Origin: Vulcanimicrobiota bacterium
GTDB taxonomy: Bacteria; Vulcanimicrobiota; Vulcanimicrobiia; Vulcanimicrobiales; Vulcanimicrobiaceae
DNA length: 64,000 nucleotides
Reading direction: 5' to 3'
NCBI GenBank assembly: GCA_963795855.1
Contig: CAWCIZ010000002.1
Span: 384,001 to 448,000, forward strand
The translations under genes were made by a program, and so were the position numbers. Below are positions 11,862 through 31,338 of this stretch, piece after piece. The notes under the pieces are model-generated. The model did not search any database, was not told the DNA's origin, and saw only the letters and a list, made by a program, of their open reading frames with translations. Position 1 is the first letter of the stretch; each line of letters begins with the position of its first letter.

Positions 11862-11915
11862 GTTCCTCTACCACACAACGTAAATAAAACGGACCGGCGG
11901 TCCGTTTGACAACCC

Positions 11916-11945
11916 AGTATAGCACAAGCAAGATTCGAGCTGCAA
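11916..11945 (-). promoter_or_regulatory. Predicted sigma70/sigmaA promoter for the rpmG-secE-nusG operon
   Basis: TTGCAG-18bp-TATACT with extended TG. Confidence 0.55.
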
Positions 11946-11971
11946 CCGCCACTCAAATCGCCGGCCAAAAT

Positions 11972-12045
11972 CGCGCCCGGGCGGAATCGAACCGCCAACC
12001 TCGGCCTTAGGAGTGCCTTGCTCTATCCAATTGAGCTACGGGCGC
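11972..12045 (-). tRNA. tRNA-Arg (CCT), CCA not encoded
   Basis: GCGCCCGTAGCTCAATTGGATAGAGC...CT CCT AA...GGTTCGATTCC...CGGGCGCG; anticodon stem has two A.G mismatches. Confidence 0.85.
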
Positions 12046-14431: not shown

Positions 14432-14515
14432 GCATCCTCCCGACTGCTCCTTACCCATGCCGCCGTTGCCGCTCACGACGCGCGCGAAGGCGCTCAGCCT
14501 CTTCGTGCGGTACAA

Positions 14516-15451
14516 ATGGCTACGATGAATGGTCTCGGAGAACTGCCCGCGGGTCCGCCGGATTACGAGCTGCTCGAACGGCAGGCCGCCGCGCTGCTCG
14601 AGAACGTCGACAATTTTCTCGCTAATGCCGCAAACTTTGCCGCGTTCGTGTATTATTCGCTGCCGGATGTGAACTGGGCTGGGTTTTACTTTCCCGACAC
14701 GCGCGGGCTGGTGCTCGGGCCGTTCGGCGGCAAGCCCGCGTGCACGGTGCTTCCGCGCGGCGAGGGCGTCTGCAACCGCGCGTTCGAGACCGCGAGCCCC
14801 GTCATCGTCGAAGACGTGCATGCTTTCGCGGGACACATTGCCTGCGATCCCGCTTCGCGCTCGGAACTCGTGCTGCCGATCTTGCATGACGGCGCGGTCT
14901 ACGGCGTCTTCGATCTGGACAGTCCGCTGCGCGCGCGCTTCGGCGAACGCGACTCCGCCGGACTCCAGCGGCTCGTCGCGCAGTTCGCGGCGCATACGCC
15001 GTTGCCCGAGCGCTTCCGCACGACGCGGATGCCGAGCAACATCAACCAGCGCATCGACGTGCAGACGTGCCGGGATCATCACGTCGTCCTGCGCTATCTC
15101 GTCGAAGAAGTCGGCAACGAGGGACGCGCGGCAAACGTCGCGCCGCTGCTGCGGCGGCTGCGCTCGGTGCTCGTCGCGCATTTGAAGTTGGAAGACGACT
15201 GGCTGTATCCGCGCTTGGAGCAGAGCAGCAACGCCATCGTGCGCGGCAAAGCCGAACGCTACCATCGTGAAGTCGGCGGATTGCGCGCGCAATTCGACGC
15301 ACTCTGGAAGCGCTGGTCGGCTGATGACGCCGTCGCTGCGGACTTTTCGGCATGGCAAACGCAATGGCGCGAATTCCAGCACGCGTTCGAAGCACGGATC
15401 GCGTCCGAAGACGACGATCTGTACCTGGCGGCGGAAGAGGATTTCGCCTAG
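14516..15451 (+). CDS. GAF domain (free Met-R-sulfoxide reductase-like) fused to hemerythrin-like domain
   Basis: NWAGFY, LGPFGGKPAC, GVC, HIACDPASRSELVLP; C-terminal AHLKLEDDWLYP and RIASEDDDLY. Confidence 0.8.
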   Translation: MATMNGLGELPAGPPDYELLERQAAALLENVDNFLANAANFAAFVYYSLPDVNWAGFYFPDTRGLVLGPFGGKPACTVLPRGEGVCNRAFETASPVIVEDVHAFAGHIACDPASRSELVLPILHDGAVYGVFDLDSPLRARFGERDSAGLQRLVAQFAAHTPLPERFRTTRMPSNINQRIDVQTCRDHHVVLRYLVEEVGNEGRAANVAPLLRRLRSVLVAHLKLEDDWLYPRLEQSSNAIVRGKAERYHREVGGLRAQFDALWKRWSADDAVAADFSAWQTQWREFQHAFEARIASEDDDLYLAAEEDFA

Positions 15452-15452
15452 T

Positions 15453-15656
15453 TCAACGCAGCGGCCGGCGCGGAGGATTGCGCCGAATGCGCCAAACCTG
15501 CATCGCCACGAGCAGCGCGAAGATTACCGCGATCGGACCGAGCGAGAACCAGAACGAGAGTAGTTGGATGTGATACGGATGCGCGTTCGTTTGGACGACC
15601 ATTTGCGCGAGCATGTCGCTAGTGTATACCGTCTGGTGTAAAAAAATGTGTCGCAA
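15453..15656 (-). CDS. Small membrane protein (start uncertain)
   Basis: One hydrophobic segment followed by a basic tail; fills an intergenic gap. Confidence 0.35.
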   Translation of the reverse strand: MRHIFLHQTVYTSDMLAQMVVQTNAHPYHIQLLSFWFSLGPIAVIFALLVAMQVWRIRRNPPRRPLR

Positions 15657-15734
15657 GCGCGAATTTTGCGCCGGTCGAGAGATGGCCCGCCCGCCCGCTC
15701 AGGGAACGCGCGGGCGCGGCCGAAAACACTTTGT

Positions 15735-16118
15735 ATGGAGCATCTGCTCGTGCCGGCGGTCGCGTTAGCGATCGTCGCGGCAACGGCTATACTGACGGTC
15801 GCGCGCTACTGCGCCCTTCCGGAACGCATTCCGCTGGGACTGCATTTCAACTCGGACAGCAGCGGGAATGGGCCGCGCTACATGATCGGCTTTTTTCCGT
15901 TCATCCAGATGGGCCTCGCACTCGACGCAATCTCTCAGCCGACCGGCGACGCGCTCTTTTTGACCGCGATGGTGGCGATTCTGTACTTCGCGCAACTGCT
16001 GACCATCGAGCTGTCGATGTACGGCCCCTCGCGCGCGCGCTACGCCCGCTTCTGGGCTTCGTTCGCGGTGCTGATAGCGGCCGGAACGACCGCGGCGTTC
16101 GCGCTGCCGCTCCACTAG
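15735..16118 (+). CDS. Membrane protein, DUF1648-like
   Basis: LPERIP..HF...G pattern after a TM helix; several TM segments. Confidence 0.55.
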   Translation: MEHLLVPAVALAIVAATAILTVARYCALPERIPLGLHFNSDSSGNGPRYMIGFFPFIQMGLALDAISQPTGDALFLTAMVAILYFAQLLTIELSMYGPSRARYARFWASFAVLIAAGTTAAFALPLH

Positions 16119-16148
16119 AAAAGCCCGGCTAACGTGCCGGGCTTTTTA
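16119..16148. terminator. Bidirectional intrinsic terminator
   Basis: AAAAGCCCGGC-loop-GCCGGGCTTTTT between a gene and the convergent tRNA cluster. Confidence 0.8.
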
Positions 16149-16151
16149 CTC

Positions 16152-16226
<75 letters not shown>

Positions 16227-16236
16227 GAAAAACCGT

Positions 16237-16310
16237 TGGAGCGGGCGGCGGGAATCGAACCCGCGCTGTCTGCTTGGAAGGCAGAAGCACTACCACTATG
16301 CAACGCCCGC
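16237..16310 (-). tRNA. tRNA-Gly (TCC)
   Basis: GCGGGCG...CT TCC AA...GGTTCGATTCC...CGCCCGCTCCA. Confidence 0.96.
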
Positions 16311-16315
16311 GCAAC

Positions 16316-16403
16316 TGGTGGGCAGGGCTGGATTCGAACCAGCGTACAGCTTTCGCTGGACAGATTTACAGTCTGTTGCCTTTAACCACTCGGCCACCTA
16401 CCC
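16316..16403 (-). tRNA. tRNA-Tyr (GTA)
   Basis: GGGTAGG...CT GTA AA, long variable arm, ...CCTGCCCACCA. Confidence 0.97.
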
Positions 16404-16591
16404 GCGCACGTCCCGTCTGGGACGACAGCGCACCAGGGTACGATGCGCCCCGGTCCGAGTCCTGTGCCGCGCTTCGGCGCGGCTTCTAATCGCTTTTTCC
16501 GCTTTCTCTCAGAAGCGGCTCATGAAGCGCCCCCTCCCTTGCCGTTATAACCGAATCAAGCACCCCTCTCCGCTAGATTTGGAGCTTCGCA

Positions 16592-17779
16592 ATGAACGTA
16601 CGCACCCCCATGATGGCCGCGCTTTTGCTCGCGTCAGCGACGCTGACGGCGTGCGGCGGCGCCGGCGGATCCGGTTCCTTTACCCCTGCCGGCGCGAACG
16701 GCGGCAACACCGGCGGCAACGGCGCCTCAGTCCAATCCCAAACCGAAGATTCAGTCGACACCGCGAACGCGATCGGCTCGCCGATGAAAGAGATCGGCTC
16801 ATCGAACGAGGCCACGGGTTCGCCGCTGCAAACCGGCGCCCGCACCGCGCAAGCCGTTTCCGTGAAAACGCTGGGTGACGGGAGCTGCAGCAACGGCGTC
16901 GAGTTCTTCTCTCCCGACAAAAAAGGCGATGCAAACTCCACCGAACGCATCGTTTTCTACGACAACGGCTGCACGCAGATGCAGAGCGACGCGGTTCGTG
17001 TGTACACCTCCACCAGTTCGACGTCCGAAACCGTGCAGCGCACTGTGTCGCGCTACCATCTGGGCGCAAGCACACCCTCGTCGGTTCGAACCGAGACCGT
17101 AAGTTACACGAACGCCGCGTTCGATCAGTTCGGTTATCCGATATACAAGAACGGCTTCGATCGCACGCATACCGGTGAACTCGACGTCAACGGCGTGAAG
17201 ACGATCGACGGCGACGGTGAACTGGCGCTGCTCTCGGCGAGCGGTTCTACCTCGACCTTTTGCGGCGATTCCGCCGGCTTCAACGCGACCGGCAACGCAT
17301 CGCTGAACGAAACCTTCGGCTGGGCCGGCGTTATGCCGAGCGGAACGCGCACCGTCAACCCCGACGGCAGCGTCACCTGGAATCTCACGCACGAGGGCAG
17401 CACGTACACCGGTTCGATCGGCGGCCTCTCGATTCAAGCCGGAGCGCAGAATACGAGCTGCCCTATCTCCGCGCCGATGTTCACGCTCGCGGGCGGCACG
17501 CTGAAGGGCCAATACCAGATCCCGATTCAGGCAACGTATCTTGACGGCATTCTGACGAACCTGACCGTCAGCAACGCGTCGCTCTCCAACGGCGACACGC
17601 TCGACATTCAAACCAATAGCGGCATCTCGCCGGGCGACGAGCACTTCATCTCCGGCACGCTTTCCAAGAGCGGCACGACGATTGCCAACTTCAACGTCAA
17701 CGCCTTCGGCGACGGAACGCTGGTCGTGGTCGCGAGCGGCAAGGCGTACGAAATCGAAGATTGGCACGTCGTCAAGTAA
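16592..17779 (+). CDS. Hypothetical lipoprotein, Gly/Ser/Thr-rich
   Basis: Lipobox LTAC followed by a GGAGG linker; GGAG RBS; followed by a terminator. Confidence 0.8.
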   Translation: MNVRTPMMAALLLASATLTACGGAGGSGSFTPAGANGGNTGGNGASVQSQTEDSVDTANAIGSPMKEIGSSNEATGSPLQTGARTAQAVSVKTLGDGSCSNGVEFFSPDKKGDANSTERIVFYDNGCTQMQSDAVRVYTSTSSTSETVQRTVSRYHLGASTPSSVRTETVSYTNAAFDQFGYPIYKNGFDRTHTGELDVNGVKTIDGDGELALLSASGSTSTFCGDSAGFNATGNASLNETFGWAGVMPSGTRTVNPDGSVTWNLTHEGSTYTGSIGGLSIQAGAQNTSCPISAPMFTLAGGTLKGQYQIPIQATYLDGILTNLTVSNASLSNGDTLDIQTNSGISPGDEHFISGTLSKSGTTIANFNVNAFGDGTLVVVASGKAYEIEDWHVVK

Positions 17780-17798
17780 CGCTCAAGGCTTGCGCACT

Positions 17799-17830
17799 AG
17801 AAGAAGGCTCCGCACTCGGGAGCCTTCTTG
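17799..17830. terminator. Intrinsic terminator, probably bidirectional
   Basis: AAGAAGGCTCC-loop-GGAGCCTTCTT between convergent genes. Confidence 0.7.
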
Positions 17831-17856
17831 GCGTTTTGCGTGACCCCGCGGCGCGT

Positions 17857-18294
17857 TTACGTCGCCGTCGAACTTTCTTTCTTCAAGCGACCCTCTTCTA
17901 AGTCTATCAGTTCGGTCCAGGTGTTCACGTAATCGTTTCCGGGATCGATCTTCTCGAGTTCGTCGCAGAAGTGCTCGCGTTCTTCCGGCTTCGGCTCGTT
18001 GTGCAGCACCCACTCGTTCATCTTCACGGTCTTTTCCGGTTCAGGGCGCACGTAATCGCGAATCCACTCCAGTACCGCGTCGTCGTCCGGCGAACGGCGC
18101 ACGGCATCCAAGAACTCGTCCTCGGTGACGCCCAGCGTATTGAACAACTTGAGGTTGAAACGGCAGCCGTAGTAGAGGTACTCGCCGAGTTTGCCTTCGA
18201 GTTGCGCGCGGGCTTTGTCTATCGCGCGCGGAAGCAGCATCATGCCGTCCAATTCTTCGCGCGGGCCGCGCGGATATTCGTGGGTCAGGTCCAT
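17857..18294 (-). CDS. DUF5069-like protein
   Basis: MDLT..YPRGPREELDG...LPRAIDKARA...GEYLYYGC...IDLEEGR. Confidence 0.8.
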   Translation of the reverse strand: MDLTHEYPRGPREELDGMMLLPRAIDKARAQLEGKLGEYLYYGCRFNLKLFNTLGVTEDEFLDAVRRSPDDDAVLEWIRDYVRPEPEKTVKMNEWVLHNEPKPEEREHFCDELEKIDPGNDYVNTWTELIDLEEGRLKKESSTAT

Positions 18295-18326
18295 GCCGCC
18301 AGCTTTCCCAGCATGCGGTCTGCTAA

Positions 18327-18797
18327 TCACTCCAGCGGAGCGTTGTACTTCAAAAAGCGGCCTTCGCGCGTCCAGCCGGCGCGCTCGTACACGCGTTGCG
18401 CGACGGCGTTGTCTTGCGCAGTTTCCAGAAACATGCCGCAAGCGCCGGTCTCACGCGTATGTTCGAGCGCACGAGCCAGCAGCGCGGAGGCGATGCCGGC
18501 CTTGCGATGCCTCGCGTCGACGAACAAATCTTCGAGAATCCACGACGGCGCAAGTTGCACGGTGGAGTACGTGGGAAACAGTTGCATAAATCCCGCGCCT
18601 TCGCCATCCACTTCGGCGATGTATATCTCCGAGGTGCCGTTGCGTAAATGCGATTCGATAAACGCGCGTTCGCGTCGCGCATCGGGCTCGCGGCGATAGA
18701 AAACGCGATAGGCCTGCACGAGCGGCAAAAGCGCGTCTACGTCTTCAATCGTTGCTTCTCGAATGGTCGTTTTCGCGATCGCGACGCTCCAGTCATC
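18327..18797 (-). CDS. GNAT family acetyltransferase (start codon uncertain)
   Basis: IREAT..D, AGFMQLFPTYS, ILEDLFV...RKAGIA, LETAQDN.VAQRVYE. Confidence 0.85.
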   Translation of the reverse strand, partial: DDWSVAIAKTTIREATIEDVDALLPLVQAYRVFYRREPDARRERAFIESHLRNGTSEIYIAEVDGEGAGFMQLFPTYSTVQLAPSWILEDLFVDARHRKAGIASALLARALEHTRETGACGMFLETAQDNAVAQRVYERAGWTREGRFLKYNAPLE

Positions 18798-18848
18798 ACA
18801 AATGTGAGTCGTGCAACACCTGTAAAACCACAGGTATGGCACACGTGC

Positions 18849-18857
18849 AGTATAGCA
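18849..18857 (-). promoter_or_regulatory. Extended -10 promoter element
   Basis: TGCTATACT upstream of the GNAT gene. Confidence 0.45.
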
Positions 18858-19084
18858 TAGACGCACTTCCAGGCCGGCCCTGCGCGCAGTGCCGCAATAT
18901 GGTTGGGTCGGCCAAACGGGGGTTTCGCTCGCGGCGTTGCGTGCTGCCATTCGCTCACGGCAACATTTCGAGGATTAAACGGGGCTAGTAGGCGGCCAAT
19001 GCGCGCGGGACGGCGCGGAAACTTGTAAAATGGCGCCGCGGACGCACAGGACTGCTACCTGTCGCAGCCCAATAGTGAGGCCAC

Positions 19085-19158
19085 GCCGGCGTAGACTCAA
19101 TTGGTAGAGTCCCGCATTTGTAATGCGGTTGTTATCGGTTCGAGTCCGATCGTCGGCT
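19085..19158 (+). tRNA. tRNA-Thr (TGT), CCA not encoded
   Basis: GCCGGCG acceptor stem; CCGCA-TT TGT AA-TGCGG; ATCGG-TTCGAGT-CCGAT; slightly atypical D arm. Confidence 0.9.
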
Positions 19159-19211
19159 AGCGATTTGCGGAGGCATCGTTAAGCGTGCCTCCGCCTCATG
19201 AAACGGATATC

Positions 19212-19622
19212 ATGCAACCAATCAATCCCAAATGGACGAATTCCGGTCTCGTGCTCGTGTGCGAGCGCTGCTTCAAAGAGCGGATTCCCGAAGAAGATCC
19301 GGACAAAGCCGCGGAGATCGGTGATTTCCATTTGCGCGATTGGCTCAAGAAGCGTCTGAAAGAAGACGGCTACTGGGGCAAAGTCCGCGCCGTAAGCACG
19401 AGCTGTATGGACGTTTGCGCCCGACGCCGCGTAACGGTGGTCATCGATCCGAAGATCGAAGGCAAACGCGCGCAGGCGTACGTCGTCGACCCGGTTGCCG
19501 AGAAAGACGCGCTGTACGATCTGATCGTGCGACGCCTGGGCGATACGCGAAGCGACGAAACGACGATGGACCGTCCCGCTCCGGGATTCGAGCGCTACGA
19601 AGACGAGGTAACCGGCCGATAA
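19212..19622 (+). CDS. Thioredoxin-like (2Fe-2S) ferredoxin/metal-binding domain protein
   Basis: VLVCERC ... VSTSCMDVC (CxxC...CxxxC). Confidence 0.55.
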   Translation: MQPINPKWTNSGLVLVCERCFKERIPEEDPDKAAEIGDFHLRDWLKKRLKEDGYWGKVRAVSTSCMDVCARRRVTVVIDPKIEGKRAQAYVVDPVAEKDALYDLIVRRLGDTRSDETTMDRPAPGFERYEDEVTGR

Positions 19623-19632
19623 CCCTTTCAAG

Positions 19633-20124
19633 ATGCTGACGCCCGCACTTCTCTGCGCCGCGCTTCTTCTTCTCGGGTCCACCGCCGTCGCGGCGGATCC
19701 TCAGCGCCCAATTGCAGATGCGCCTGCAGGATGGAGCGCGCACGACGGCGCCGGCGGACTGCACTATTTCACACCCCCCGGCGGATCCGACTCCGACGTT
19801 TACGAAGCGGTGTTCCCCACGCAAAAAATGAACGGCACGCTGGAACAAACCGCGGCGGGGATTTGGCGCGCCATCGTAGGCAACGAACGCATCGTCGATA
19901 CGAAGTCGAAAGCTATCAGCGTACGCGACGGCGCGCCGGCGTACGAAGTGATCGTGGCCTCGCTGGATGCGCGAAATCTCAGTGTGTATCGCGTCTTCAT
20001 CGTCAAGCAATACGGCCGCAGCGTCGCCGCCGGCGAGCTGCGATTCACCGACGTTCAGCGAATCGCAGACATCGGCGAAGCCGCGTTCGCATCGCTCGAA
20101 GGGATGTCCGTGCCGAGAAACTGA
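19633..20124 (+). CDS. Secreted hypothetical protein
   Basis: Signal peptide ending AVA-A; followed by a terminator. Confidence 0.6.
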   Translation: MLTPALLCAALLLLGSTAVAADPQRPIADAPAGWSAHDGAGGLHYFTPPGGSDSDVYEAVFPTQKMNGTLEQTAAGIWRAIVGNERIVDTKSKAISVRDGAPAYEVIVASLDARNLSVYRVFIVKQYGRSVAAGELRFTDVQRIADIGEAAFASLEGMSVPRN

Positions 20125-20152
20125 AAGGGCGCCGAATCGGCGCCCTTCGTTT
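20125..20152. terminator. Intrinsic terminator between convergent genes
   Basis: AAGGGCGCCG-AAT-CGGCGCCCTT. Confidence 0.7.
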
Positions 20153-20154
20153 GC

Positions 20155-20802
20155 TTACGGGAGTTCGATCTCCGAGAGATTCTTTTCGATCTTCCGCTTC
20201 ACGCGCTGCAGCGCGTTGTCGATCGACTTCACGTGCCGTCCCAAATCGCGCGCCATCTCCTGATAGCTCTTGCCTTCAAGGTAGGAGAGCAGCACTTGAG
20301 ATTCGAGTTCCGACAGGTTCTCTTGGATGCGCTCCTTGATATCCTGTGAAACTTCCTGGTTGATCACCAGTTCTTCCGGATCGGAAGTCTTCTGCGATGC
20401 CATCACGTCGAGCAGCGTGCGTTCGCTGTCTTCGTCGTAAATCGGTTTGTTGAGCGAAATGTACTGGTTGAGCGGAATGTGTTTCTGACGCGTCGCCGTC
20501 TTAATCGCGGTGATGATCTGCCGCGTGATACAGAGTTCCGCAAATGCGCGGAAACTCGAAAGCTTGTCGGCTTTGAAATCGCGAACCGCTTTGTAGAGAC
20601 CGATCATGCCTTCCTGGATGATGTCTTCGCGGTCGGCGCCGATCAAAAAGTAACTCTTCGCCTTGATGCGGACGAAGTTTTTGTACTTGTTGAGCAGAAA
20701 TTCCATTGCGAGATTGTCGCCCGATTTGGCGGTCGCAACTAAATCTTCGTCAGCCCGCTCGTGATAGTCGAGTCCATCCGACACAGGATGGGTCATTGCC
20801 AT
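20155..20802 (-). CDS. sigH: RNA polymerase sigma factor SigH (Bacillus sigma-H type)
   Basis: KYKNFVRIKAKSYFLIGADREDIIQEGMIGLYKA, KTATRQKHIPLN, KSIDNALQRVKRK. Confidence 0.95.
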   Translation of the reverse strand: MAMTHPVSDGLDYHERADEDLVATAKSGDNLAMEFLLNKYKNFVRIKAKSYFLIGADREDIIQEGMIGLYKAVRDFKADKLSSFRAFAELCITRQIITAIKTATRQKHIPLNQYISLNKPIYDEDSERTLLDVMASQKTSDPEELVINQEVSQDIKERIQENLSELESQVLLSYLEGKSYQEMARDLGRHVKSIDNALQRVKRKIEKNLSEIELP

Positions 20803-20880
20803 GTCTTTTTCGCCCTCTGGGACACTATGCGCGCAAATCGCAGGCTCCGCGGAACCCGTCGAACGCGACACATCCCGAAC

Positions 20881-20909
20881 AGTATAGGAGGGACCTCCTT
20901 GCGCGTCAA
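20881..20909 (-). promoter_or_regulatory. Predicted sigmaA promoter of sigH
   Basis: TTGACG-17bp-TATACT. Confidence 0.7.
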
Positions 20910-20927
20910 GGACAAGAGAGGCAAGCC

Positions 20928-21697
20928 TTACGAAGCGTTTGCCGGCGCGCGTCGCTGGCGTACAGCTTCATACAAAAGAACGCCCGCTGCAACCGAGGCG
21001 TTGAGCGATCCGACGCGCCCCAACATTGGAATCCGAACCAGGTAGTCACACTCTCGCTTGACCAGATGCGACAGCCCAGGGCCTTCCGCGCCGATGACTA
21101 CGGCTGAGATTTGTTGCGAAATCCGCCTGGGTAAAATCGACGCTTTCCGGTCCTACGTCCGCTCCGGCGACCCAGATACCGGCTTTCTTGATTTTTCGAA
21201 TCGCGTCCGCGACGTTGGACACGCGCGCGATGGGCAGATGAGCGGCCGCTCCCGCTGCCGCCTTTCGAACGGTCGCGTTGACGCCGGCGGCGCGGCGTTC
21301 CGGCAAGACGATCGCGTTCGCGCCTGCGCACTCCGCCGTGCGAATGATCGCGCCCGCGTTATGCGGATCGGTGATGTGGTCGAGCACTACGAGCAACGCC
21401 GGTTCCTCGCGCGGCGCGCCGAGCACTTCTTCCAACGTAACGTACGGAAACGGCGCGCCGAACGCGACGATGCCCTGATTTGCTTTGTACGGAAATTGCG
21501 CGAAGTAGTTCCGGTTCTCGAAGCGCACGCGAACGTTTCGCTCGCCCGCGATCTCGAGGATTTTCCGCACGACCGGATCCCGTTTGCGTTCGTCGGCGAC
21601 GTGCAGCGAGCGCAGTTCTTCACCCGCGCTCAGCGCTTCGTCGACCGCATGCAGACCGTAGATGACGTTGTCGAGATCTTAGCCGGCGACGGTCCAC
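20928..21697 (-). CDS. rlmB: 23S rRNA G2251 2'-O-methyltransferase RlmB, frameshifts near 21105 and 21678
   Basis: [33 protein letters not shown] and SLNASVAAG are in a second frame. Confidence 0.9.
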
Positions 21698-23110
21698 GTG
21701 GTGCCGTCCTTCGAATCTTTGAGCGCCACGCCGCATGCGGAAAGCGCGTCGCGCAGGCGATCCGATTCCGCCCAATTCTTCTCCTTGCGCGCCTGCGCGC
21801 GAGCCGCAATCACGCGTTCGACGGCTTCTTGCGCCGTCGCGCCGTTGAGCGGGAGCGGCGTCTGTCCGATCGAAGATTGAAGCCGCTCCAGAAAATCGGC
21901 CGGCAATTCCCGGCGCGGCGCTTGGAGCCACGCGTCGTTCGGCGTCAGACCCAGCACGTCGAGCCAATACGCGAATTCATGCGAAAGAGCCGCCGCGATA
22001 CGAAAGCAGCTCGGATAGCGCGACCGCCGTGTTCATGTCGTCGTCGAGCGCCGCTTCCATCTTCGCACGCAGATCCCCAGTAGGCGCTTGCGCGGCTCCG
22101 TCATCCGGAGCGCCGGAATGCAGCGCGCGATACGTCTTCTTCAGATTTTCCAACGCGACTGCGGCGCCGGCGATCGATTCTTCGGTGAAGTTCATCACCT
22201 TGCGATAGCCCGTCTGCAGAAACCGCAGCCGGATCGCTTGCGGGTCGTGGCGATCGAGCAATTCGTAGAGCGGCTCGAAGTTGCCGAGCGATTTGCTCAT
22301 CTTTTGGTTGTCGAACAGCAGCAACCCGCCGTGCATCCAAAAGTTCGCCATCGGCGGATGCCCCATCAGCGGCTCGCTTTGCGCGATTTCGTTTTCGTGA
22401 TGCGGAAAGATCAAATCCGCGCCGCCGCCGTGAATGTCGAATCCGGCGCCCTGCGGATCCAGCAGCTCGTGCGACATCGCCGAGCACTCGATGTGCCATC
22501 CCGGCCGCCCCTCGCCCCACGGCGACGGCCAAGTCGGCTCGCCCGGCTTTGCCAATTTCCACAGCGCGAAATCGAGCGGATCTTCCTTCGCCTCGTCGAT
22601 TTCGATACGTGCGCCGGACTCCAGTTCCTCGATATTCCGGTTGGACAGCGCGCCATAGCGCGGGAACTGCGAGACGCGATAATACACGCCGTCTTTCGTT
22701 ACGTACGCGTAGCCCTTTTCCATCAGCTCGCGTATCATTTCGACGATCTGCGGGACGAACTTCGTGGCGTACGGTTCGACGTCCGGCTCCCGAACGCCCA
22801 AGCGCTGCATCGAACGTTTGAACGAGGCGTAATACGCGCTCACGATCTCGTACCAGTCTTCACCGGTCTCTTTCGCGCGGTTGATGCTGCGATCGTCGAT
22901 GTCGGTAACGTTCTGCACGAAGGTCACGGCGTATCCCGCGTGCCGCAGATAGCGGCGTAACACGTCGAAAAAAAGAAACGATCGCGCGTGACCCAGATGC
23001 GCCTCCGCCGACGGCGTCAAGCCGCAGACGTACATCCGAACGGTTCCCGCCTGCAGCGGAGCGAACGCCTCGACGCTGCGCGTGCGCGTATTGTAGATCG
23101 TCAAAGCCAT
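21679..23110 (-). CDS. cysS: Cysteinyl-tRNA synthetase, frameshift near 21990
   Basis: [27 protein letters not shown]-terminal [15 protein letters not shown] is in a second frame. Confidence 0.95.
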
Positions 23111-23117
23111 CGGAAGT

Positions 23118-23795
23118 CTAAATCACCCACGACCAGGCCGTGTCGCCCGTTTCCTCTTGCTCGATCTCGCGCAGCAGATCTTCCAATTGCGCCACGCGCC
23201 GCTGCAGTTTCGCGATTGCGTCGGCCGTCGGATCCGGCATGTCGACTTGGGGGCGATCCGGCACGGCACGAACCGGCACGCCGTTCTGCATAACGATGCG
23301 CGCCGGAACGCCGACGACCGTCGAGTTCGGCGGCACGTCTTTGACGACGACCGATCCGCCTCCGACCTTCGAATTCGCGCCGATGGTTATGGCACCGAGC
23401 ACCGCGGAATTGACTCCGACTGTGACGTTGTTTTCCAGCGTCGGATGGCGTTTGCCGTGTGAAAGGCTCGTACCGCCGAGCGTCACGCCTTGATAGATCG
23501 TGCAGTCGTCGCCGACTATCGCGGTTTCACCGATGACGACGCCCATTCCGTGATCGATGAAGACGCCTTTGCCGATGATGGCGGCGGGATGAATTTCGAT
23601 CCCCGTCAGAAAGCGATTCACGTTTGAAAGCCACCGTGGAAGCAGCGGGATGCGCGCACGATGGAGCGCATGAACGAACCGGTGCAGAAGAATCGCATGA
23701 AATCCGGGATAGGAAAGGACGACGTCCAGCCGGCCGCGCGCGGCAGGATCGCGTTCCAGCGGAGCGTCGAGGTCGGCGAGCAAGGTGCTAAACAT
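23118..23795 (-). CDS. cysE: Serine O-acetyltransferase
   Basis: RDPAA, TGIEIHPAA, FIDHGMGVVIGET, KRHPTL. Confidence 0.96.
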   Translation of the reverse strand: MFSTLLADLDAPLERDPAARGRLDVVLSYPGFHAILLHRFVHALHRARIPLLPRWLSNVNRFLTGIEIHPAAIIGKGVFIDHGMGVVIGETAIVGDDCTIYQGVTLGGTSLSHGKRHPTLENNVTVGVNSAVLGAITIGANSKVGGGSVVVKDVPPNSTVVGVPARIVMQNGVPVRAVPDRPQVDMPDPTADAIAKLQRRVAQLEDLLREIEQEETGDTAWSWVI

Positions 23796-23821
23796 TCTTC
23801 ATCCGCAACAGTGTATACGTT

Positions 23822-24370
23822 CTAGGCATCGGGATGTTTGCCGCGTATGGGTTCGAACGGCTTCCCGCCCGGCCCAAACCGGATCGGTTCCAATCCCCGG
23901 CCGTGGAGCAGTTGCGAGTTCACTGCGCCGATGCGTATGAGGATGCGGTCGTGTCCCAACAGCGCAAACAGCAGTTCCAGCGGCGGCCCGTCCGCCTTTC
24001 CGGTCAGCGCCATGCGGACGGCGTAGCGCGCGTCGTCCTCGCTAATCCCGAATTCGGCTGCCATTTCCGCCAGATCGTGCTCCAAGGGTAACCCGCGCAA
24101 CTCCGTTTGACTATCCACGTACTGCCCTACCGTGTCTAGGAAAAACAGTACCTCTCGCGTTCGCAGGCGTTCCAGTTCGAGCGCCGGTACGATGCACGAT
24201 TCGGCGCGCAAATCCGCAACGATCGGTCGAGCGTCGTCGATCTGCCCGAGGCTGCCGCCGAATGCCTCCAGGAACGTGTCGACCCAGCGCAGGGCGGCCG
24301 GGGGGGCGGGTTCTTCCAAAAATCCCCACCGCTGCATCGCTGCGGCCAAGTCGGTCGCCGTCGTCGTCAC
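23822..24370 (-). CDS. Stand-alone protein resembling the GluRS C-terminal anticodon-binding domain
   Basis: AVRMALTGKADGPPLELLFALLGHDRILIRI resembles the GluRS C-terminal R.ALTG...GP.L......LG motif; occupies the ispF-gltX-cysE slot; no HIGH/KMSKS motifs. Confidence 0.7.
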   Translation of the reverse strand: MTTTATDLAAAMQRWGFLEEPAPPAALRWVDTFLEAFGGSLGQIDDARPIVADLRAESCIVPALELERLRTREVLFFLDTVGQYVDSQTELRGLPLEHDLAEMAAEFGISEDDARYAVRMALTGKADGPPLELLFALLGHDRILIRIGAVNSQLLHGRGLEPIRFGPGGKPFEPIRGKHPDA

Positions 24371-24374
24371 GCCG

Positions 24375-24848
24375 TCACATCGCTTCCAGAAGCGCGACGG
24401 CGTACGCCGCGATGCCGCTCCCGTCTCCGGTGTACCCCATCCCTTCGCTCGTTTTCGCTTTCACGCTCACTTGGGGGAGCGAGAGCCCGAGGCGTCCGGC
24501 GATGTTCTCGCGCATGCGCATCACGTGCGGCGCGAGCTTGGGCTGCTGCACGACGATAGTCGCGTCGATGTTTTGGATTCGGTATCCCTCGCGGCGCACT
24601 TCCGATGCGCAGTGCTGCAGCAGCTCCATCGAATCGGCATTTTTCCAGCGCTCGTCGGTGTCCGGGAAGTGTCCGCCGAGATCGCCTAGCGCCGCCGCTC
24701 CCAAAAGCGCGTCGCTGACGGCATGGGCGAGCACGTCCGCGTCGGAGTGTCCGAGTGCCCCGCGATCGTGCGGCACGTCGACGCCTCCGAGAATCAGTTT
24801 GCGCCCCTCGACCAAACGGTGGGCATCGAAGCCCTGTCCTATCTTCAT
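24375..24848 (-). CDS. ispF: MECDP synthase
   Basis: [35 protein letters not shown]. Confidence 0.96.
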
Positions 24849-25548
24849 CCCTCCTCCTGAACCAGAACGGCGGCGCGAAGCTGCAGCGCTTGCTGTGCGC
24901 GAGCCAGGTCTTCGGGGAGCGTCACTTTGAAATTCTCCGGCGATCCGGGCACCACGTGCACGCGCACTCCGGCGCGTTCGAGGAGCATCGCGTCGTCGGT
25001 TGCCTCGAGTCCATCGCGCAAGCCCGCTTCGTGCGCCCGCATCATGTCGGAATACATTGCAAATTGCGGCGTTTGCGCCGCCCATAAAACGCTGCGCTCG
25101 AGCGTTTGTTCGACGGTCCGCTCGGCGTTCACGACTTTTATCGTGTCGACGATGGGGATCGCGAGCAGCGATGCATGCCCGGCGCGCACGGGCTCGATGC
25201 CGCGCCGCACCTCGTCCGCGGTCACGAGCGGGCGCGCACCGTCGTGAACGAAGACGCCCTCGCACGCACCGCCGCCGGCGCGCAGCGCTTCGTACGTGCT
25301 CGCCTGCCGTGTCGCACCTCCGCCCACCACCGCATACGGCGTCGTCTGCGCCGCATCCGCTGCAGTTTCGCGCACGCGATCGACCCACTCGAGTCCGTCG
25401 CAACGATTACGCGCTCGACGTCCGCCACGCTCGCAAACGTGCGAATCGACCACCAGAGCATCGGTTTGCCGGCGATCTCCACGAGCTGCTTCGGCCGGCC
25501 GAAACGCGTTCCGCGTCCCGCCGCGACGACAATCGCACAGAATCTCAC
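24845..25548 (-). CDS. ispD: MEP cytidylyltransferase, frameshift near 25394
   Basis: [12 protein letters not shown] in one frame; GGATRQ.S, VHDGARP, AQTPQ, NFKVT in the other. Confidence 0.93.
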
Positions 25549-26639
25549 GCCCTTTTCACCTTGGCGAAAATCATTCGTCCCGCCGCGGTCTGCAGCACGC
25601 TCGTCACGACCACGTCGGCGGCTTCGCCGATCAGCCGCCGCCCTTGCTCCACGACGATCATCGTGCCGTCATCGAGATAACCGACGCCTTGGTGGGGCTC
25701 CTTGCCGTCACGGACGATCTGCACGTGCATCTCCTCGCCCGGCAGCACCACCGGTTTGACGGCGTTCGCGAGTTCGTTGATGTTGAGCACTTGCACGCCT
25801 TCGACGTGCGCGACCCGGTTCAAGTTGTAATCGGTCGTCAGCAGTTTGGCGCCCAAGTCCTGCGCCAAACGCACGAGCTTCGCATCCGCCGCGCGCACGT
25901 CGGAATAGTCGCGCTCGCTGACCTCGAGCAGTTCCAATTCCTGCAGGCGCTTGAGCACTTCCAATCCGCGCCGTCCGCGCGAGCGGCGCATGACGTCCGA
26001 CGAATCGGCGATCGTTTGCAGTTCGCGCAAAATGAACCGCGGCAAGATCAGCGGCCCCTCGAGAAAACCGCTCTCCAGAATTTCGACGATGCGCCCGTCC
26101 ACGATGACCGACGTGTCGATCACTTTCGCGGGTGCGGAAAAGCCCGAGACCGCCCCTGCGAGCGGCATGATGTGCATGCGCGCGCCGACCCTCGCGCCCA
26201 GGTACGCGGCAAAAATGCTGATGATGATGTACAGCAGGATTGCGATGTAGCTGCCCGACTGGCCGCTCGTCGAGATGAATTCGAACACGATGCTGCGGAT
26301 CAGAAACGCGATCAGCAAACCGACGATGAGACCGATCGCCCCGCCGGCGAGTTCGACCGGCGCAAGCCGCTCGATCGCATGTTCGACCGCGTTGAGTTCA
26401 TCTTCGAAAAAGGATTGAGCGAGTGGTGCGAGCAGCACGCCGATCAGCGCTCCGACCACCGGCGAGAGAATGTTGAACGTCAGTTGCAGCGGCTCGCTCG
26501 CGAAATGAAGTGAGAACAAATGCACGTACGCCTCGCGGCCGAGCAGGAACCCCGTCACGCCGAAGACCACCGCGAAAATGAAACGCAGCAGCGCCGCTGC
26601 GAGGCCCGGGCCTACGCGAACGTCACGAAAGCCGCGCAT
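25545..26639 (-). CDS. PIN/TRAM domain membrane protein (YacL-like); start uncertain
   Basis: DTSVIVDGRI, RGRRGL, TDYNLN, QGVGYLDDGTMIVVE, LQTAAGRMIFA. Confidence 0.93.
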   Translation of the reverse strand: MRGFRDVRVGPGLAAALLRFIFAVVFGVTGFLLGREAYVHLFSLHFASEPLQLTFNILSPVVGALIGVLLAPLAQSFFEDELNAVEHAIERLAPVELAGGAIGLIVGLLIAFLIRSIVFEFISTSGQSGSYIAILLYIIISIFAAYLGARVGARMHIMPLAGAVSGFSAPAKVIDTSVIVDGRIVEILESGFLEGPLILPRFILRELQTIADSSDVMRRSRGRRGLEVLKRLQELELLEVSERDYSDVRAADAKLVRLAQDLGAKLLTTDYNLNRVAHVEGVQVLNINELANAVKPVVLPGEEMHVQIVRDGKEPHQGVGYLDDGTMIVVEQGRRLIGEAADVVVTSVLQTAAGRMIFAKVKRA

Positions 26640-27742
26640 ACGTCGTTGGCCAGAAAACGCCCGCGCCGCGTCAAGCGCACGTGCGTCGCGTCCGCTTCGA
26701 GCAGCCCGAGCGATTGGTACTGCGCCACGACCGGCGCGTAAAATTGCAGAAAATCCAAATCATAGCGCTCTTTGAACGCGTCCAGACAGACCCCTTGCGC
26801 GGTGCGCAGCGCGAGCATCACCGCCTCGCCGGCGCGTCTGGCGCCCGTCAATTCCTCGGCTTCGCCCGGTATCGCCCGTCCCTGCATCGCGGCATCCACG
26901 TACGTTTCGAGGTCGCGCGTGTGCACGGCGCGCACGCCTCCCCGGTACGACGCAGCTCCGACGCCAAGTCCGACATACTCGCCGTTCGCCCAGTAATTCC
27001 CATTATGCGCGCTTTCATGACGCGGCTTTGCGAAGTTGCTGATTTCGTACTGCCTCAAGCCGGCCGCTTCGAGCTCGTCTATCGCAATGGCATAGAGATC
27101 CGCCTCCCGCGCGTCGTCAAAAAATGCGGACGGTTCTTTCTCCTGCCACCGTTCGTACGGCGTACCGGCTTCAATCGTCAAGCCGTAGGCGGATACGTGA
27201 TCGACTTCGAGCGCGACTGCGGCGCGCAGCGATTGACGCCAACTCTCCGGCGTCTGGCCCGGCACGGCGAAGATCAAGTCGATCCCGACGCTGCGTATTC
27301 GTGCGGAGCGCGCGGCTTGCACGGCACGCTCGATCTGCTCGGTGGTGTGGCGGCGTCCGAGCACTTGAATTTCCGCAGGCACGAATGACTGTACGCCGAT
27401 CGAGATGCGGTTTACGCCCGCGCCGAGATAAGCCTCGGCATCATCCGCGGTGACGAGTTCCGGATTCACCTCGATCGTCGTCTCGCGATCCGCGGGCCCG
27501 GGAAACGCAACGCGCAAACGGTTCAGCAAATCCGCGATATCGGCCGGCGCATACGTGTTCGGCGTTCCACCGCCCAGAAACACGCTCTCGAACGTGCCGC
27601 GCGGCGCAGCCTGCGATTCTATTTCCGCGAAGAGCGCGCAGAGATACCGCGCAGCCGCGCTGCGTTTGTGCGGCCACTTCGCGAAGTCGCAATACGGGCA
27701 GATGTACGGGCAGAACGGGAGATGAACGTAAACGCCGGCCAT
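26612..27742 (-). CDS. hemW: Radical SAM heme chaperone HemW
   Basis: YVHLPFCPYICPYCDF, GGGTP, YEISNF, HNGNYW. Confidence 0.92.
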   Translation of the reverse strand: MAGVYVHLPFCPYICPYCDFAKWPHKRSAAARYLCALFAEIESQAAPRGTFESVFLGGGTPNTYAPADIADLLNRLRVAFPGPADRETTIEVNPELVTADDAEAYLGAGVNRISIGVQSFVPAEIQVLGRRHTTEQIERAVQAARSARIRSVGIDLIFAVPGQTPESWRQSLRAAVALEVDHVSAYGLTIEAGTPYERWQEKEPSAFFDDAREADLYAIAIDELEAAGLRQYEISNFAKPRHESAHNGNYWANGEYVGLGVGAASYRGGVRAVHTRDLETYVDAAMQGRAIPGEAEELTGARRAGEAVMLALRTAQGVCLDAFKERYDLDFLQFYAPVVAQYQSLGLLEADATHVRLTRRGRFLANDVCAAFVTFA

Positions 27743-27833
27743 AAACGGATAAGCGTCAGCGGCTTTTCGCGAAGACCGGCGCGTGTGCGGCTATCGCGTA
27801 GTGCTGACGCCATCCGGAAAGGCACCGGCACCG

Positions 27834-28697
27834 TCATGCGCCGTCCGAATCTTGCGCCGAAAAAATTCCCACGGCGCCCGGGCCGCCGTGCGTTGCGATA
27901 ACCGGCCCGGCTTCGAGAACGTCGAGCATTTGCGGCTCCGCGTCTCCTAGATGCACGCGCACGCGCTCGAGAATGTTCTTCGCCAGCTCCGGAGCATTCG
28001 TGTGCATGACCAGAAAGCGCGCCTTGGAAACGTCGGAGATCGGCTGGAGCGAAAGATCGATCATCGTTTGCTGCGCGCGGCCCATCGTGCGCACCTGCGC
28101 CTCCGCTACGACTTCGCCGCCTTCGAGCGCGATGACCGGAACGATTTTCATCAGCGTACCGATGACCGCGCGCGCTTTTCCGATGCGGCCCGTGCGCACG
28201 ACGTGGGAGAGATCGGGGATGCATGCGTAGAGATGCTGCGTGCGCTTCTCACGCTCGACGGCCTGCAGAATCGTCTCGACGCTCGCCCCGGCTTGCGCGA
28301 GCGCGCACGCGTGCAGCACGTGCATGCCCAAACCTCCCGCGACGCTTTCCGAATCGACGACCGCGATTCTGGCATCGGGGAATTGCTGCGCCGCGGCGCG
28401 CGCCGCATTGATCGTGCCGGAAAGTTTGGCGCTGATCACGATGCAGACGACGTCGCTTCCGGCTTGAACGTGCGGGCGAAATGCATCCTCGAACATCTGC
28501 GCGCTGGGCTGCGAGGTCGTCGGAAGCACCGGTTCGCTTGCGAGCTTTTCGTAGAATTCGCGGCGGGAGAGGTCGACGTAATCCCGGTAACTGCGATCGC
28601 CGAAGACGACGAATAGAGGAACGACCTCGATACCGAGTTCGCGCGCGCGCGCAGGCTCGATGTCCGACGTGCTGTCCGTCACGATGGCGACGGCCAA
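27834..28697 (-). CDS. DegV family fatty acid-binding protein (FakB-like)
   Basis: IVTDSTSD, TTSQPS, ISAKLSGT, GPVIATHGGPG. Confidence 0.93.
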   Translation of the reverse strand: MAVAIVTDSTSDIEPARARELGIEVVPLFVVFGDRSYRDYVDLSRREFYEKLASEPVLPTTSQPSAQMFEDAFRPHVQAGSDVVCIVISAKLSGTINAARAAAQQFPDARIAVVDSESVAGGLGMHVLHACALAQAGASVETILQAVEREKRTQHLYACIPDLSHVVRTGRIGKARAVIGTLMKIVPVIALEGGEVVAEAQVRTMGRAQQTMIDLSLQPISDVSKARFLVMHTNAPELAKNILERVRVHLGDAEPQMLDVLEAGPVIATHGGPGAVGIFSAQDSDGA

Positions 28698-28700
28698 ATG

Positions 28701-29711
28701 CTACGCTTCCTTGGCTAGGTGCGGTTTGACCAGTTCGGTGATTTTGCCGATGACGTCGTTTTGCGCTTCGATCGCGGCCGCGTGGACGGCGTGCTTGATC
28801 GCGTTTCGCGTGGCGCGGCCGTGCGTGACGATGCAGTTTCCGCGCAGGCCGAGCAGCGGCGCGCCGCCGTACGTTTCGTAGTTGAACCTCGCCCGCATCT
28901 TGCGCAGTGCGGGGTAGACGAGCGCCGCGCCGAACCGCGCGACGATGCCGCCGCCGAGCAGCGCGTCCTTGAGCACTTTTTGAAAATCGGAAACGAAGCC
29001 CTCGCCCATCTTCAGCACGACGTTGCCGACGAAACCGTCGACGACCACGACGTCGGCCGGATTGTGAAAGAGATCTTTGCCTTCGACGTTGCCGATGAAA
29101 TGAATCGGCGCCGCGCGCAGCAGCTTCGCCGCCTCGAGCACCTGCGCGTTGCCTTTGGTTTCTTCTTCGCCCACCGAGAGAATCGCGACGCGCGGATTCG
29201 GCAAGTTTAACACCGCTTTCGCATACGCCGTCCCCATCAAACCGAATTGCTCGAGCCACTCGGGCCGGCAATCGACGTTCGCACCGGAGTCCAGCAGCAC
29301 CATCGGTCCGTTCATGACCGGCCACACCGTCGCAATCGCCGGTCGCGCGATACCCGGAATCGTCCGCAGTTTGATCAGCGCAATAGCCAGAAACGCGCCG
29401 CTGTTGCCCGCTGAGACGACCGCGTCCGCTTGCGCGTCCTTCACCATGTTCACGGCAACGCCGAGTGAAGTTTTGTCCGCGACGCGCAGCGCTTGGGATG
29501 CGTGCATGTCCATCGGAACGTTTTCCGGTGCGTGGACGAGCGTGATCTTCTCTGCGCCCGCGCCTTGCAGCAACGGACGCACTTTCGCCTCGTCGCCCAC
29601 GAGTATGAGGTCGCCGTAGTCTTCTCGAGCGGCGAGGATCGCTCCGGCGACGATTTCTTCGGGCGCGTGATCGCCGCCCATGGCGTCGATGACGATGCGC
29701 GGCTTATTCAT
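28701..29711 (-). CDS. plsX: Phosphate acyltransferase PlsX
   Basis: IDAMGGDHAP, SAGNSGA, RPAIA, DGFVGNVVLK, GGAPLLG. Confidence 0.96.
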   Translation of the reverse strand: MNKPRIVIDAMGGDHAPEEIVAGAILAAREDYGDLILVGDEAKVRPLLQGAGAEKITLVHAPENVPMDMHASQALRVADKTSLGVAVNMVKDAQADAVVSAGNSGAFLAIALIKLRTIPGIARPAIATVWPVMNGPMVLLDSGANVDCRPEWLEQFGLMGTAYAKAVLNLPNPRVAILSVGEEETKGNAQVLEAAKLLRAAPIHFIGNVEGKDLFHNPADVVVVDGFVGNVVLKMGEGFVSDFQKVLKDALLGGGIVARFGAALVYPALRKMRARFNYETYGGAPLLGLRGNCIVTHGRATRNAIKHAVHAAAIEAQNDVIGKITELVKPHLAKEA

Positions 29712-31338
29712 CGAGCGACACCCAGTACTCGGCGTTCTTTTGTCCGCCGAAGTAGTAGTCCACGTCGGCAGCGGGGAACGCGCGCCGCAACTCTTCCGCC
29801 AAGCGTTGCGCATCTTTTTCTTTCTGCGCGCCGCCGTAATACACCGTAATCAAGCCTCCGCTACGAGCACCCATCGCTTCCAGCGCCGTTTGCGCCGCAT
29901 CAGTCAGCGTTCCGCCGCCGAACAATCGCGCTTCGTCACCGCGAACGATCGCCGCCGGCTTCCCCTGCGCCACGCTCGTTCCACCCACCGTTGCATCCTT
30001 CCCCGCAAAGAACACTTGGGCGCTGCGCGTGCGGTTCGCCGCCTCCAGCACTTCGGACGTTTCGGGCGTCGCATCGCCGCGGGAGCGAAGCGCGAGCAGG
30101 CCGGCAATCCCGCCGACGACGTCCGCCGTGGGCACGACGTGCACTGCAAGCCCGCCGCCGCTGCGCGCGGCTTGCTCCAGGCGAAGAGCGGCGGCTTCCT
30201 TAGCGGCGAGCGCGATGTTTTTGTCGTTCACGAATAGGAACACGGTGTTCGACATGCATTTGGTGAGGGCCAGCAGCAAGTCGCGAACGCTCGGGTTCTG
30301 CGCAGCCGGCACGGTGACTTCCGCGCCCAGCTCTTTGGCGATGCGCTCGAAGCCGGCGCCCGGCACGACCGCCACCGCGGAGTACGCGGCTTCCGGCCGC
30401 TCGACGACCAGCACGTTGTGCTGCTGCTCCATGTTGTCGACTTTCGCGCGCGTCAGCTCGCCGTGCTTTGCCGCGATCGCCTTCACGCCTTCGGGATTGT
30501 CCGTATGAATGTGCACCTTCAGCGTGGGCGGCGCGCCCGCGACGATGAGTGAGTCGCCTCTTTGCGCGAGCAAATCTCGCAGATCGACGGCCGAGCACCC
30601 CGCCTTTTCCAGAATGAACTCCGTACAGTACTTGTTTTCGCCCACGATCTGCGCCGCCGTGAAAACGCGCTCTTTAATGGGGCGCCTGGGGAATGCGGTG
30701 GACCGCACTTTGATGTCGGGAAGAAAGCGCAGAACGCCTTCGAGAAAATACACGAATCCTGCGCCCCCGGAGTCGACTACGCCCGCTTCTTTCAAAACGG
30801 GGAGTTGATCGGGCGTCCGATCGAGCGCGTCGTTCGCCGAGCGCAGCATGCCGTTCGCGAGCCGGTAAAAATCCGGTTCATGCAATGCTAGCCGGTACGC
30901 GGAGTCCGCGGCCGCCTCGGCGACGGAGATGATCGTGCCGTCGACGACCTGCACGAGTGCTTGCCTTGCCGCCTGCACCCCTTCCCGCATGCCCGTCGCA
31001 AGCATGAAGGTGTCGATTTCCGAACGGTGCCGCACGTGATGCGCGAAGCCGCGCAGCATTTGCGAAATGATGACGCCGGAATTCCCCCGCGCTCCCATCA
31101 GCGCCCCGCGTGCCGCCGCGGCCGCGACCTCGGAGAGCGGATGTCCCGCAACTTTGCCCGCCTCCAGGGCAGCCTGGCGGCAGGTCAGGTACATGTTCGT
31201 CCCCGTGTCCCCGTCCGGCACCGGAAAGACGTTGAGGTCGTTGAGGACGTCGCGGTACTTTCTGAGGAAGTACGAACCCGCCGTAACGAACTTGGCGTAC
31301 GCTCGGCCGTCGAGGACGGTGACATCCATGGGCCGCAC
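29704..31338 (-). CDS. DAK2-domain fatty acid kinase subunit (FakA/YloV-like)
   Basis: LNVFPVPDGDTGTNM, GARGNSGVI, VVDSGG, YCTEF, KVHIHT, GGQ. Confidence 0.93.
   Translation of the reverse strand: MRPMDVTVLDGRAYAKFVTAGSYFLRKYRDVLNDLNVFPVPDGDTGTNMYLTCRQAALEAGKVAGHPLSEVAAAAARGALMGARGNSGVIISQMLRGFAHHVRHRSEIDTFMLATGMREGVQAARQALVQVVDGTIISVAEAAADSAYRLALHEPDFYRLANGMLRSANDALDRTPDQLPVLKEAGVVDSGGAGFVYFLEGVLRFLPDIKVRSTAFPRRPIKERVFTAAQIVGENKYCTEFILEKAGCSAVDLRDLLAQRGDSLIVAGAPPTLKVHIHTDNPEGVKAIAAKHGELTRAKVDNMEQQHNVLVVERPEAAYSAVAVVPGAGFERIAKELGAEVTVPAAQNPSVRDLLLALTKCMSNTVFLFVNDKNIALAAKEAAALRLEQAARSGGGLAVHVVPTADVVGGIAGLLALRSRGDATPETSEVLEAANRTRSAQVFFAGKDATVGGTSVAQGKPAAIVRGDEARLFGGGTLTDAAQTALEAMGARSGGLITVYYGGAQKEKDAQRLAEELRRAFPAADVDYYFGGQKNAEYWVSLDE

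Follow-up and report, generated by a model that had tools for sequence, protein, structure and literature searches.

On its minus strand the analysed window, a stretch of 64,000 nucleotides, carries the gene order yacL-ispD-ispF-X-cysE-cysS-rlmB-sigH, an order proposed earlier by a sequence-only reading and confirmed here by profile matches of the neighbours. X is an intact open reading frame of 182 amino acids that starts 4 bp past the ispF stop and ends 26 bp before cysE, and it holds both the motif and the tail that this reading had described. The features of the region are as follows.

20155..20871, minus strand: sigH
20952..21678, minus strand: rlmB, frameshifted, ends approximate
21679..23110, minus strand: cysS, with a frameshift near 21980 in the source assembly
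23118..23795, minus strand: cysE, the downstream neighbour of X
23822..24370, minus strand: X, stand-alone glutamyl-tRNA synthetase (GluRS) domains IV and V plus tail, 182 aa, GTG start
23825..23911, minus strand: C-terminal tail of X, residues 154-182 (about 28 aa), the end of the long last helix followed by a short hairpin, pLDDT 75-80
23930..24019, minus strand: domain V signature helices of X, residues 118-147, including the invariant Arg119 and Gly128
24035..24043, minus strand: residues 110-112 of X, Ser-Glu-Asp, corresponding to positions 426-428 next to the wobble pocket in T. thermophilus
24161..24187, minus strand: linker helix of X, residues 62-70, near-invariant, present only with the tail
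24200..24370, minus strand: domain IV three-helix bundle of X, about residues 1-57, helices 5-15, 24-40 and 44-55
24375..24848, minus strand: ispF, the upstream neighbour of X (TIGR00151, 212 bits)
24845..25548, minus strand: ispD, frameshifted in the source assembly
25545..26639, minus strand: yacL-like PIN/TRAM gene

The frameshifts lie at about 21100 in rlmB, about 21980 in cysS and about 25335-25385 in ispD; all three genes are whole in genome G012, and the frameshifts are probably read errors of the source assembly. Between positions 10000 and 30000 of the window no Rfam element beyond tRNAs was found; at Rfam thresholds a T-box is thus missing in front of cysE-cysS, which differs in this from the Bacillus operon. 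Six tRNA genes lie within the same positions, and a tRNA-Sec gene was called on contig C3 of the source genome (113848-113941). An assembly deletion as the origin of X is excluded by the recurrence of the ispF-X arrangement in relatives: among 46 stand-alone loci that were read directly, ispF lies immediately upstream in 45, mostly overlapping the start of X or ending a few bases away, and both ispF and cysE are found in 42.

The Pfam profile Anticodon_2 (PF19269) matches X with 29 bits (cut-off 23.6), and the gltX_bact model reaches 21 bits against a cut-off of 290, aligning only over its positions 347-464 of 470. No PF00749 catalytic domain was found at the X locus, which confirms the earlier claim that a HIGH/KMSKS domain is missing there, and the HIGH and KMSKS motifs required by gltX_bact are absent. 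An AlphaFold2 model built from a 101-row alignment consists of eight helices with a mean pLDDT of 92, the tail being less certain. By using this model in a structure search, 2cfo was found as the best match (Z 15.6, rmsd 2.9, 159 residues aligned), and every match above Z 8 was a GluRS or a LysRS, none being a ligand-binding fold. The class I LysRS 1irx reached Z 9.1 and unrelated structures at most 5.1; the proposal that X is a class I LysRS C-terminal domain was rejected on that Z value against 15.6 for GluRS, together with 66% identity to a full-length GluRS. In a search of the ESM Atlas with the GluRS families excluded, all matches fell under 0.9. A search of sequencing runs gave no RNA run containing the sequence and one DNA run with 0.07 of its words. 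Fold, profile and synteny agree in placing X in the gltX slot as the C-terminal module of a GluRS, as had been supposed, since it scores above the Pfam cut-off and its best structural matches are GluRS C-termini.

The tail of X, correctly singled out from the sequence as atypical of GluRS, occurs in 44/46 stand-alone rows, the exceptions being G021, which has a frameshift there, and G016. It is already found on 8 of 11 C-terminal domains of uneroded full-length or contig-cut relatives, and therefore did not first arise on the freed gene. The linker helix is present in 46/46 stand-alone, 18/18 eroded and 8/8 tail-bearing rows, and in 0/3 tail-less rows; the tail, with which it goes together, is likewise found in 18/18 eroded rows. 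Near-invariant polar residues cluster in 55-99, 140-158 and the tail, regions that would face away from the wobble pocket, judging by homology and secondary structure; His140, Asp141, His156 and Cys59 are highly conserved. Arg119, the equivalent of the U35-stacking Arg435, is kept in 46/46 stand-alone rows, this assignment having been made by counting on the alignment, from which the domain V numbering also comes, and the domain IV register having been set by motif. The equivalent of Arg358, described for T. thermophilus GluRS as the C36-reading position (PMC12088422), is Ser40 in X and is variable among the stand-alone copies.

Homologues of X are hosted by Ca. Baltobacteraceae, a family of soil bacteria in the phylum Vulcanimicrobiota, and 1071 of them with a length of 100-319 aa were collected. 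An X match was obtained in 155 of the 233 family genomes that are at least 85% complete; 25 of these matches are joined to a GluRS body and six are weak (five tail-less full enzymes and one hit with E 1e-3 in genus g36), so that the tallies imply a stand-alone X in about 124/233 genomes, with 46 plus five loci read directly. When 121 genomes from across the phylum were sampled, Ca. Baltobacteraceae alone gave strong matches; the matches of the sister family, at 40-52% identity, lie inside its syntenic GluRS. The diverged "stand-alone" representatives P0131, P0132, P0134 and P0163 resemble frameshifted copies and were left out of the count of separate families.

For X, the dN/dS ratio (Nei-Gojobori) amounts to 0.12 within the genus (8 members) and to 0.17 within the family (39 members), compared with 0.07-0.10 and 0.15-0.20 for ispF, cysS and cysE, all values being approximate because dS is near saturation. 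The identity of X (0.73) is similar to that of cysE (0.73), ispF (0.72) and cysS (0.76), and synonymous change is even along the gene, at 0.46-0.58 per 15-codon window; X is constrained like these neighbours. Neither X nor its full-length syntenic counterpart was found in 79 genomes that carry the GluRS called C below, comprising 66/69 of g36, 8/8 of g73 and five scattered ones. In three of five X-less genomes that were read, ispF lies less than 250 bp from cysE with no remnant between them, and the remaining two show gaps of roughly 470 and 750 bp in which X is not matched. Since two genera are mostly without X, its function would be accessory.

Three GluRS lineages are distinguished in these genomes: A, the ancestral syntenic enzyme of the ispF-cysE slot; B, a second ancestral paralogue; and C, a Pseudomonas/Chlamydia-type GluRS, nearest to the enzymes of P. 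aeruginosa, Moraxella and Chlamydia. The source genome (86% complete) has a single PF00749 match and no catalytic-only half, the match being a complete C of 484 aa on contig C3 (609982-611436) with its own Anticodon_2 domain. The gltX elsewhere in the genome is thus full length, C-terminal domain included. A single PF00749 match was also found in 21/24 family relatives; each of the 16 genomes from families f2 and f3 has two or more, as have G018 and G019; the full-length A of G018 is 66% identical to X, tail included. Genomes of the sister family (G025, G027, G028, G029) show a third short GluRS-like match in a frame of about 317-335 aa, possibly GluQ-RS, of which none was found in the source genome. 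Two subtypes of C occur in the family, most copies having a C-terminal helix and the others lacking it and carrying an insertion in domain IV. The source genome has the helix-less subtype, as do g28 and g73, and the mixing of subtypes within genera suggests transfer inside the family.

Position 358 has remained Arg in 20/20 rows of C, and B has Arg there as well; A has Glu, Gly or His at this position and Gly at the Thr444 equivalent, which we take to be position 417 of the H. pylori enzyme. A GlnRS domain was found in 0/41 relatives and 0/5 X-less genomes, and gatB in 40/41 relatives and 10/10 further genomes, the source genome having gatC-gatA-gatB. Both of its tRNA-Gln genes have U1:A72, a pair that GluRS2 and the amidotransferase are described as using, in the same source that reports the G417T change in H. 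pylori GluRS2 (PMC2777447). With no GlnRS found, GatCAB present, U1:A72 and no Arg358 in A, it appears from these sequence features that A is a GluRS2 of the tRNA-Gln side and that C would have to charge tRNA-Gln as well as tRNA-Glu.

Among the relatives, A can be followed from an intact GluRS2-like enzyme, through an eroded catalytic body with a conserved C-terminus, to X alone and to loss. In all, 15/238 genomes are clearly without C (11 from the family, 4 from the sister family), and all of them have a full-length A match, with HIGH and KMSKS-type motifs intact in 12 (10 tabulated plus G019 and G028); as for the remaining ones, A of G160 is cut between contigs, and G161 and G162 were not read. 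The C-like matches of G236, G238 and G242 are partial only. Where C is present, A is eroded in 19 genomes, reduced to X in about 124 and not found in 79. In eroded A, the HIGH and KMSKS motifs and the Cys-bearing insert have decayed to differing degrees. The insert has been lost from the syntenic GluRS of g13, where the motifs are intact, and of the eroded g64, g74 and g75 (loci L031, L103 and L084-L102). G178 carries, besides an eroded full-length A, a second X-like match (C16:324-902; C208), which may be a duplicate, a fragment or contamination.

In a tree that was built for 21 genomes on seven neighbouring genes, a C-less genome with an intact, tail-bearing A is basal in each of two clades, and monophyly of all 15 decayed-A genomes was rejected with p-AU 0.00013 (quick tree, LG+G4). 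Therefore, A decayed at least twice independently. As kin are not independent, about two events, and not 220 genomes, underlie the association of C with the decay of A. A quick tree of the domain gave three changes for the stand-alone state, of which the starred branches force only one. The unpublished genomes comprise G153 (intact, tail-bearing), G178 and G237 (eroded), G177 (one stand-alone locus), G014 and G036 (in the GluRS table) and G162, G173, G176, G192 and G230 (in tallies only), and no conclusion hangs on unpublished genomes alone.

The identities of the catalytic part and of domains IV and V are 0.72 and 0.73 in intact tail-bearing A (n=5), and 0.56 and 0.74 in eroded A (n=16); the other GluRS sets (tail-less A, class-level syntenic A, B and C) give 0.65-0.77 and 0.38-0.52. 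The dN/dS of the catalytic part increases from 0.14 in intact A to 0.47 in 14 eroded g75 genes. The C-terminal value of these g75 genes, 0.30, is no lower than that of ordinary GluRS C-termini (0.25-0.30), but their dN is twice as high in the catalytic part as in the C-terminus. Wherever the tail is present, the constraint on domains IV and V predates the loss of catalysis. Many eroded A proteins are likely mis-annotated as enzymes, because they reach or approach the gltX threshold, as exemplified by the eroded P0122 with 316 bits against the cut-off of 290.

The side of the module that reads the anticodon has changed after its release. In T. thermophilus GluRS, Lys426 presumably contacts the tRNA. 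At the equivalents of 426-428, three Lys/Arg residues are found in 7/8 tail-bearing enzymes, zero to two in eroded copies and none in 39/46 stand-alone ones. The T. thermophilus wobble pocket is described as Leu427, Ala431, Leu447 and Phe448 (PMC12088422); in X the 427, 428 and 431 equivalents are variable, only that of 447 is kept, and that of Phe448 is Glu in 38/46 stand-alone copies. Mean net charge is -8.8 versus -5.7, which is counted in favour of the adaptor reading given below. With the wobble-side basic residues and the Arg358-equivalent position now variable, tRNA binding as the new role of X is doubtful. The earlier idea of a freed tRNA-binding domain with a new role is thus sustained as to the freed domain, and a new role fits, but its tRNA-binding part is in doubt after the decay of the basic patch. 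Some RNA binding may persist, since Arg119 and the Gly128-Pro-Pro-Leu of the anticodon site are near-invariant and Arg68, Arg70 and Arg72 are conserved, which counts against a protein-only reading.

Candidate partners were evaluated through their distribution and covariation. When 12 X- or tail-bearing genomes were compared with 7-8 without, no position of GatC and only isolated positions of GatA and GatB separated them. HemA did not track X, being present in 5/5 genomes tested regardless of X, and neither did YqeY, present in 68/69 g36 genomes. The gain of GlnRS as the cause of X loss was rejected, GlnRS having been found in 0/5 X-less genomes. A link between X loss and the loss of the C tail helix appeared in a first sample, where 10/10 X-less genomes were without the helix, and was rejected on wider sampling, in which 10/16 further X-less g36 genomes keep it and the X-bearing G156 lacks it. 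As for CysE, X is kept without syntenic cysE in seven genomes (G009, G235, G240, G241, G245, G248, G251), which argues against it as a partner; in the four of these that were searched, the sole cysE lies elsewhere and is 46-49% identical. In favour of CysE, g73 and G053 lack X or its tail and also the CysE coiled coil, but g36 keeps the coil. The CysE of L162 and L163 (g73) and of L169 (G053) is without most of the C-terminal coiled-coil region, g73 retaining the terminal WVI.

The reading that we prefer, with a probability of roughly 0.5, is that X is a protein-binding adaptor whose second job has outlived the enzyme. X is the surviving C-terminal module of the ancestral A; while A was still an enzyme, this module would have gained the tail and the conserved back face for a second job. 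The arrival of C would have made the catalytic body of A redundant, which was then eroded and deleted at least twice, the module being kept. X would now be a non-catalytic adaptor that binds protein, either itself or a partner, most plausibly within the Glx-tRNA or translation machinery. The surface for this would combine the linker helix and domain V's first long helix with the last helix and the tail, and anticodons would no longer be read. A protein-binding surface is favoured because it best fits the acidic character and the conservation of helix faces. The steps beneath this reading (the origin of X, the lost catalysis, the purifying selection, the earlier constraint and the decay of the basic patch) are together close to certain.

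Other roles for X were weighed against the adaptor. X may be a trans-acting binder that relays tRNA-Gln or Glu-tRNA-Gln between GatCAB and the single GluRS or keeps it away from EF-Tu, as could suit genomes with gatB (40/41) and without GlnRS in the 41 relatives and five X-less genomes. A parent A without Arg358 and with Gly at the Thr444 equivalent, the retention of Arg119 in 46/46 copies and the weak binding described for H. pylori GluRS2 and GatCAB, with a KD of 40 µM (PMC3241645), point the same way. However, the lysine patch is gone, the pocket has gained Glu and position 358 varies, while g36 (66/69) and g73 (8/8) do without X and still have a single GluRS and GatB, GlnRS not being found in the five genomes tested; such a binder is unlikely, yet is the chief rival of the adaptor. 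Similarly improbable is a role in the indirect Gln-tRNA pathway in which the freed GluRS2 module docks on GatCAB or on C and couples mis-glutamylation of tRNA-Gln to amidation. If true, a specificity or channelling subunit would have been born from the repeated dismantling of a synthetase. It is quite unlikely that X binds a small ligand, a metal or a nucleic-acid leader and so regulates the cysE-cysS operon, a role that could explain the conserved His140, Asp141, His156 and Cys59, the lack of a T-box in positions 10000-30000 of the window, the adjacency of X to cysS even where cysE is gone and weak helix-turn-helix matches over residues 98-124 (E 0.2). The start of the putative recognition helix (110-112) is among the most variable parts of X, no ligand-binding fold was matched, and X persists in the seven genomes without syntenic cysE.

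The remaining readings have far less in their favour. As a swappable specificity subunit, X would pair with C and give an Arg358-free site that admits tRNA-Gln; the kin of C in P. aeruginosa, Moraxella and Chlamydia are described as using inter-subunit tRNA sites, with domains IV and V of the other subunit (PMC12088422), and C keeps its Arg at 358 in all 20 rows though no GlnRS was found. This is very improbable, given that the constraint on X is older than C, that C shows no distinguishing conserved change in X-less genomes, that the C of the source genome resembles monomeric enzymes in its domain IV insertion and missing tail helix, and that the apparent link with the C tail helix vanished on wider sampling. 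A split GluRS with its catalytic half elsewhere, one of the possibilities raised from the sequence, has the slot and the domain content on its side and is hardly credible: the sole PF00749 match is the complete enzyme of 484 aa, anticodon domain included, 21/24 family relatives are alike, and although the source genome is 86% complete, single-contig relatives at 92-97% agree. Equally slim are the odds of a decaying remnant, or of a gene kept only through an overlapping DNA/RNA element or translational coupling. The two genera mostly without X could be taken for it, and it is refuted at the protein level by dN/dS of 0.12 and 0.17, neighbour-like identity and even synonymous change.

Compared with bacterial GluRS (PF19269; 2cfo, 8jpv, 1j09), X shares the fold of domains IV and V over residues 1-160, the signature motif and the ispF-cysE slot, and differs by having no catalytic domain or wobble-side basic patch and by its tail and invariant linker helix. 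A resembles the GluRS2 of Helicobacter pylori and Acidithiobacillus in being a second GluRS without Arg358 alongside GatCAB and with no GlnRS found, and in its eroded form it recalls a non-charging paralogue such as the inactive GluRS2 described for Thermotoga maritima (PMC3927822). These three are full-length, whereas progressive deletion has removed the catalytic body in the present case and spared only the C-terminal module. GluQ-RS (YadB) is also described as a half-GluRS with its own job (PMC12088422; PMC7373986), but what it retains is the catalytic half, without this domain, X being its mirror image. The Pseudomonas-type dimeric GluRS, the family of the replacing C, is described as having, like X, a C-terminal extension on domain V (PMC12088422); that extension is a Lys-rich helix, and the tail of X is Gly/Pro-rich and unrelated in sequence. 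None of the freestanding offshoots discussed next comes from the GluRS helical anticodon domain, and X has neither an editing site nor an OB fold. Among them, Trbp111 is a freestanding tRNA binder. HisZ, AlaX and ThrRS-ed, with which Arc1p-type tRNA binders are grouped, are described as synthetase parts retained for a non-charging role (PMC7373986), as X is. A full-text search found neither GluRS anticodon domains standing alone nor the GluRS of Vulcanimicrobiota described in print, a listing in subscription papers or supplements being possible.

X is thus a real, conserved and family-wide freed synthetase part, of a known kind, for which the C-terminal half of GluRS as a free gene was not found described. 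A cultured member of Baltobacteraceae is described (PMC9758169), so that the function of X may be testable. The half-GluRS described so far is the catalytic one; in the present case it is the other half that survives, and it is conserved like its essential neighbours. Living genomes of these bacteria preserve each step of the process, from active enzyme to pseudoenzyme, free domain and loss, at least twice in parallel. In essence, this points to a second function of the bacterial GluRS C-terminus, exposed by selection once a foreign GluRS took over.
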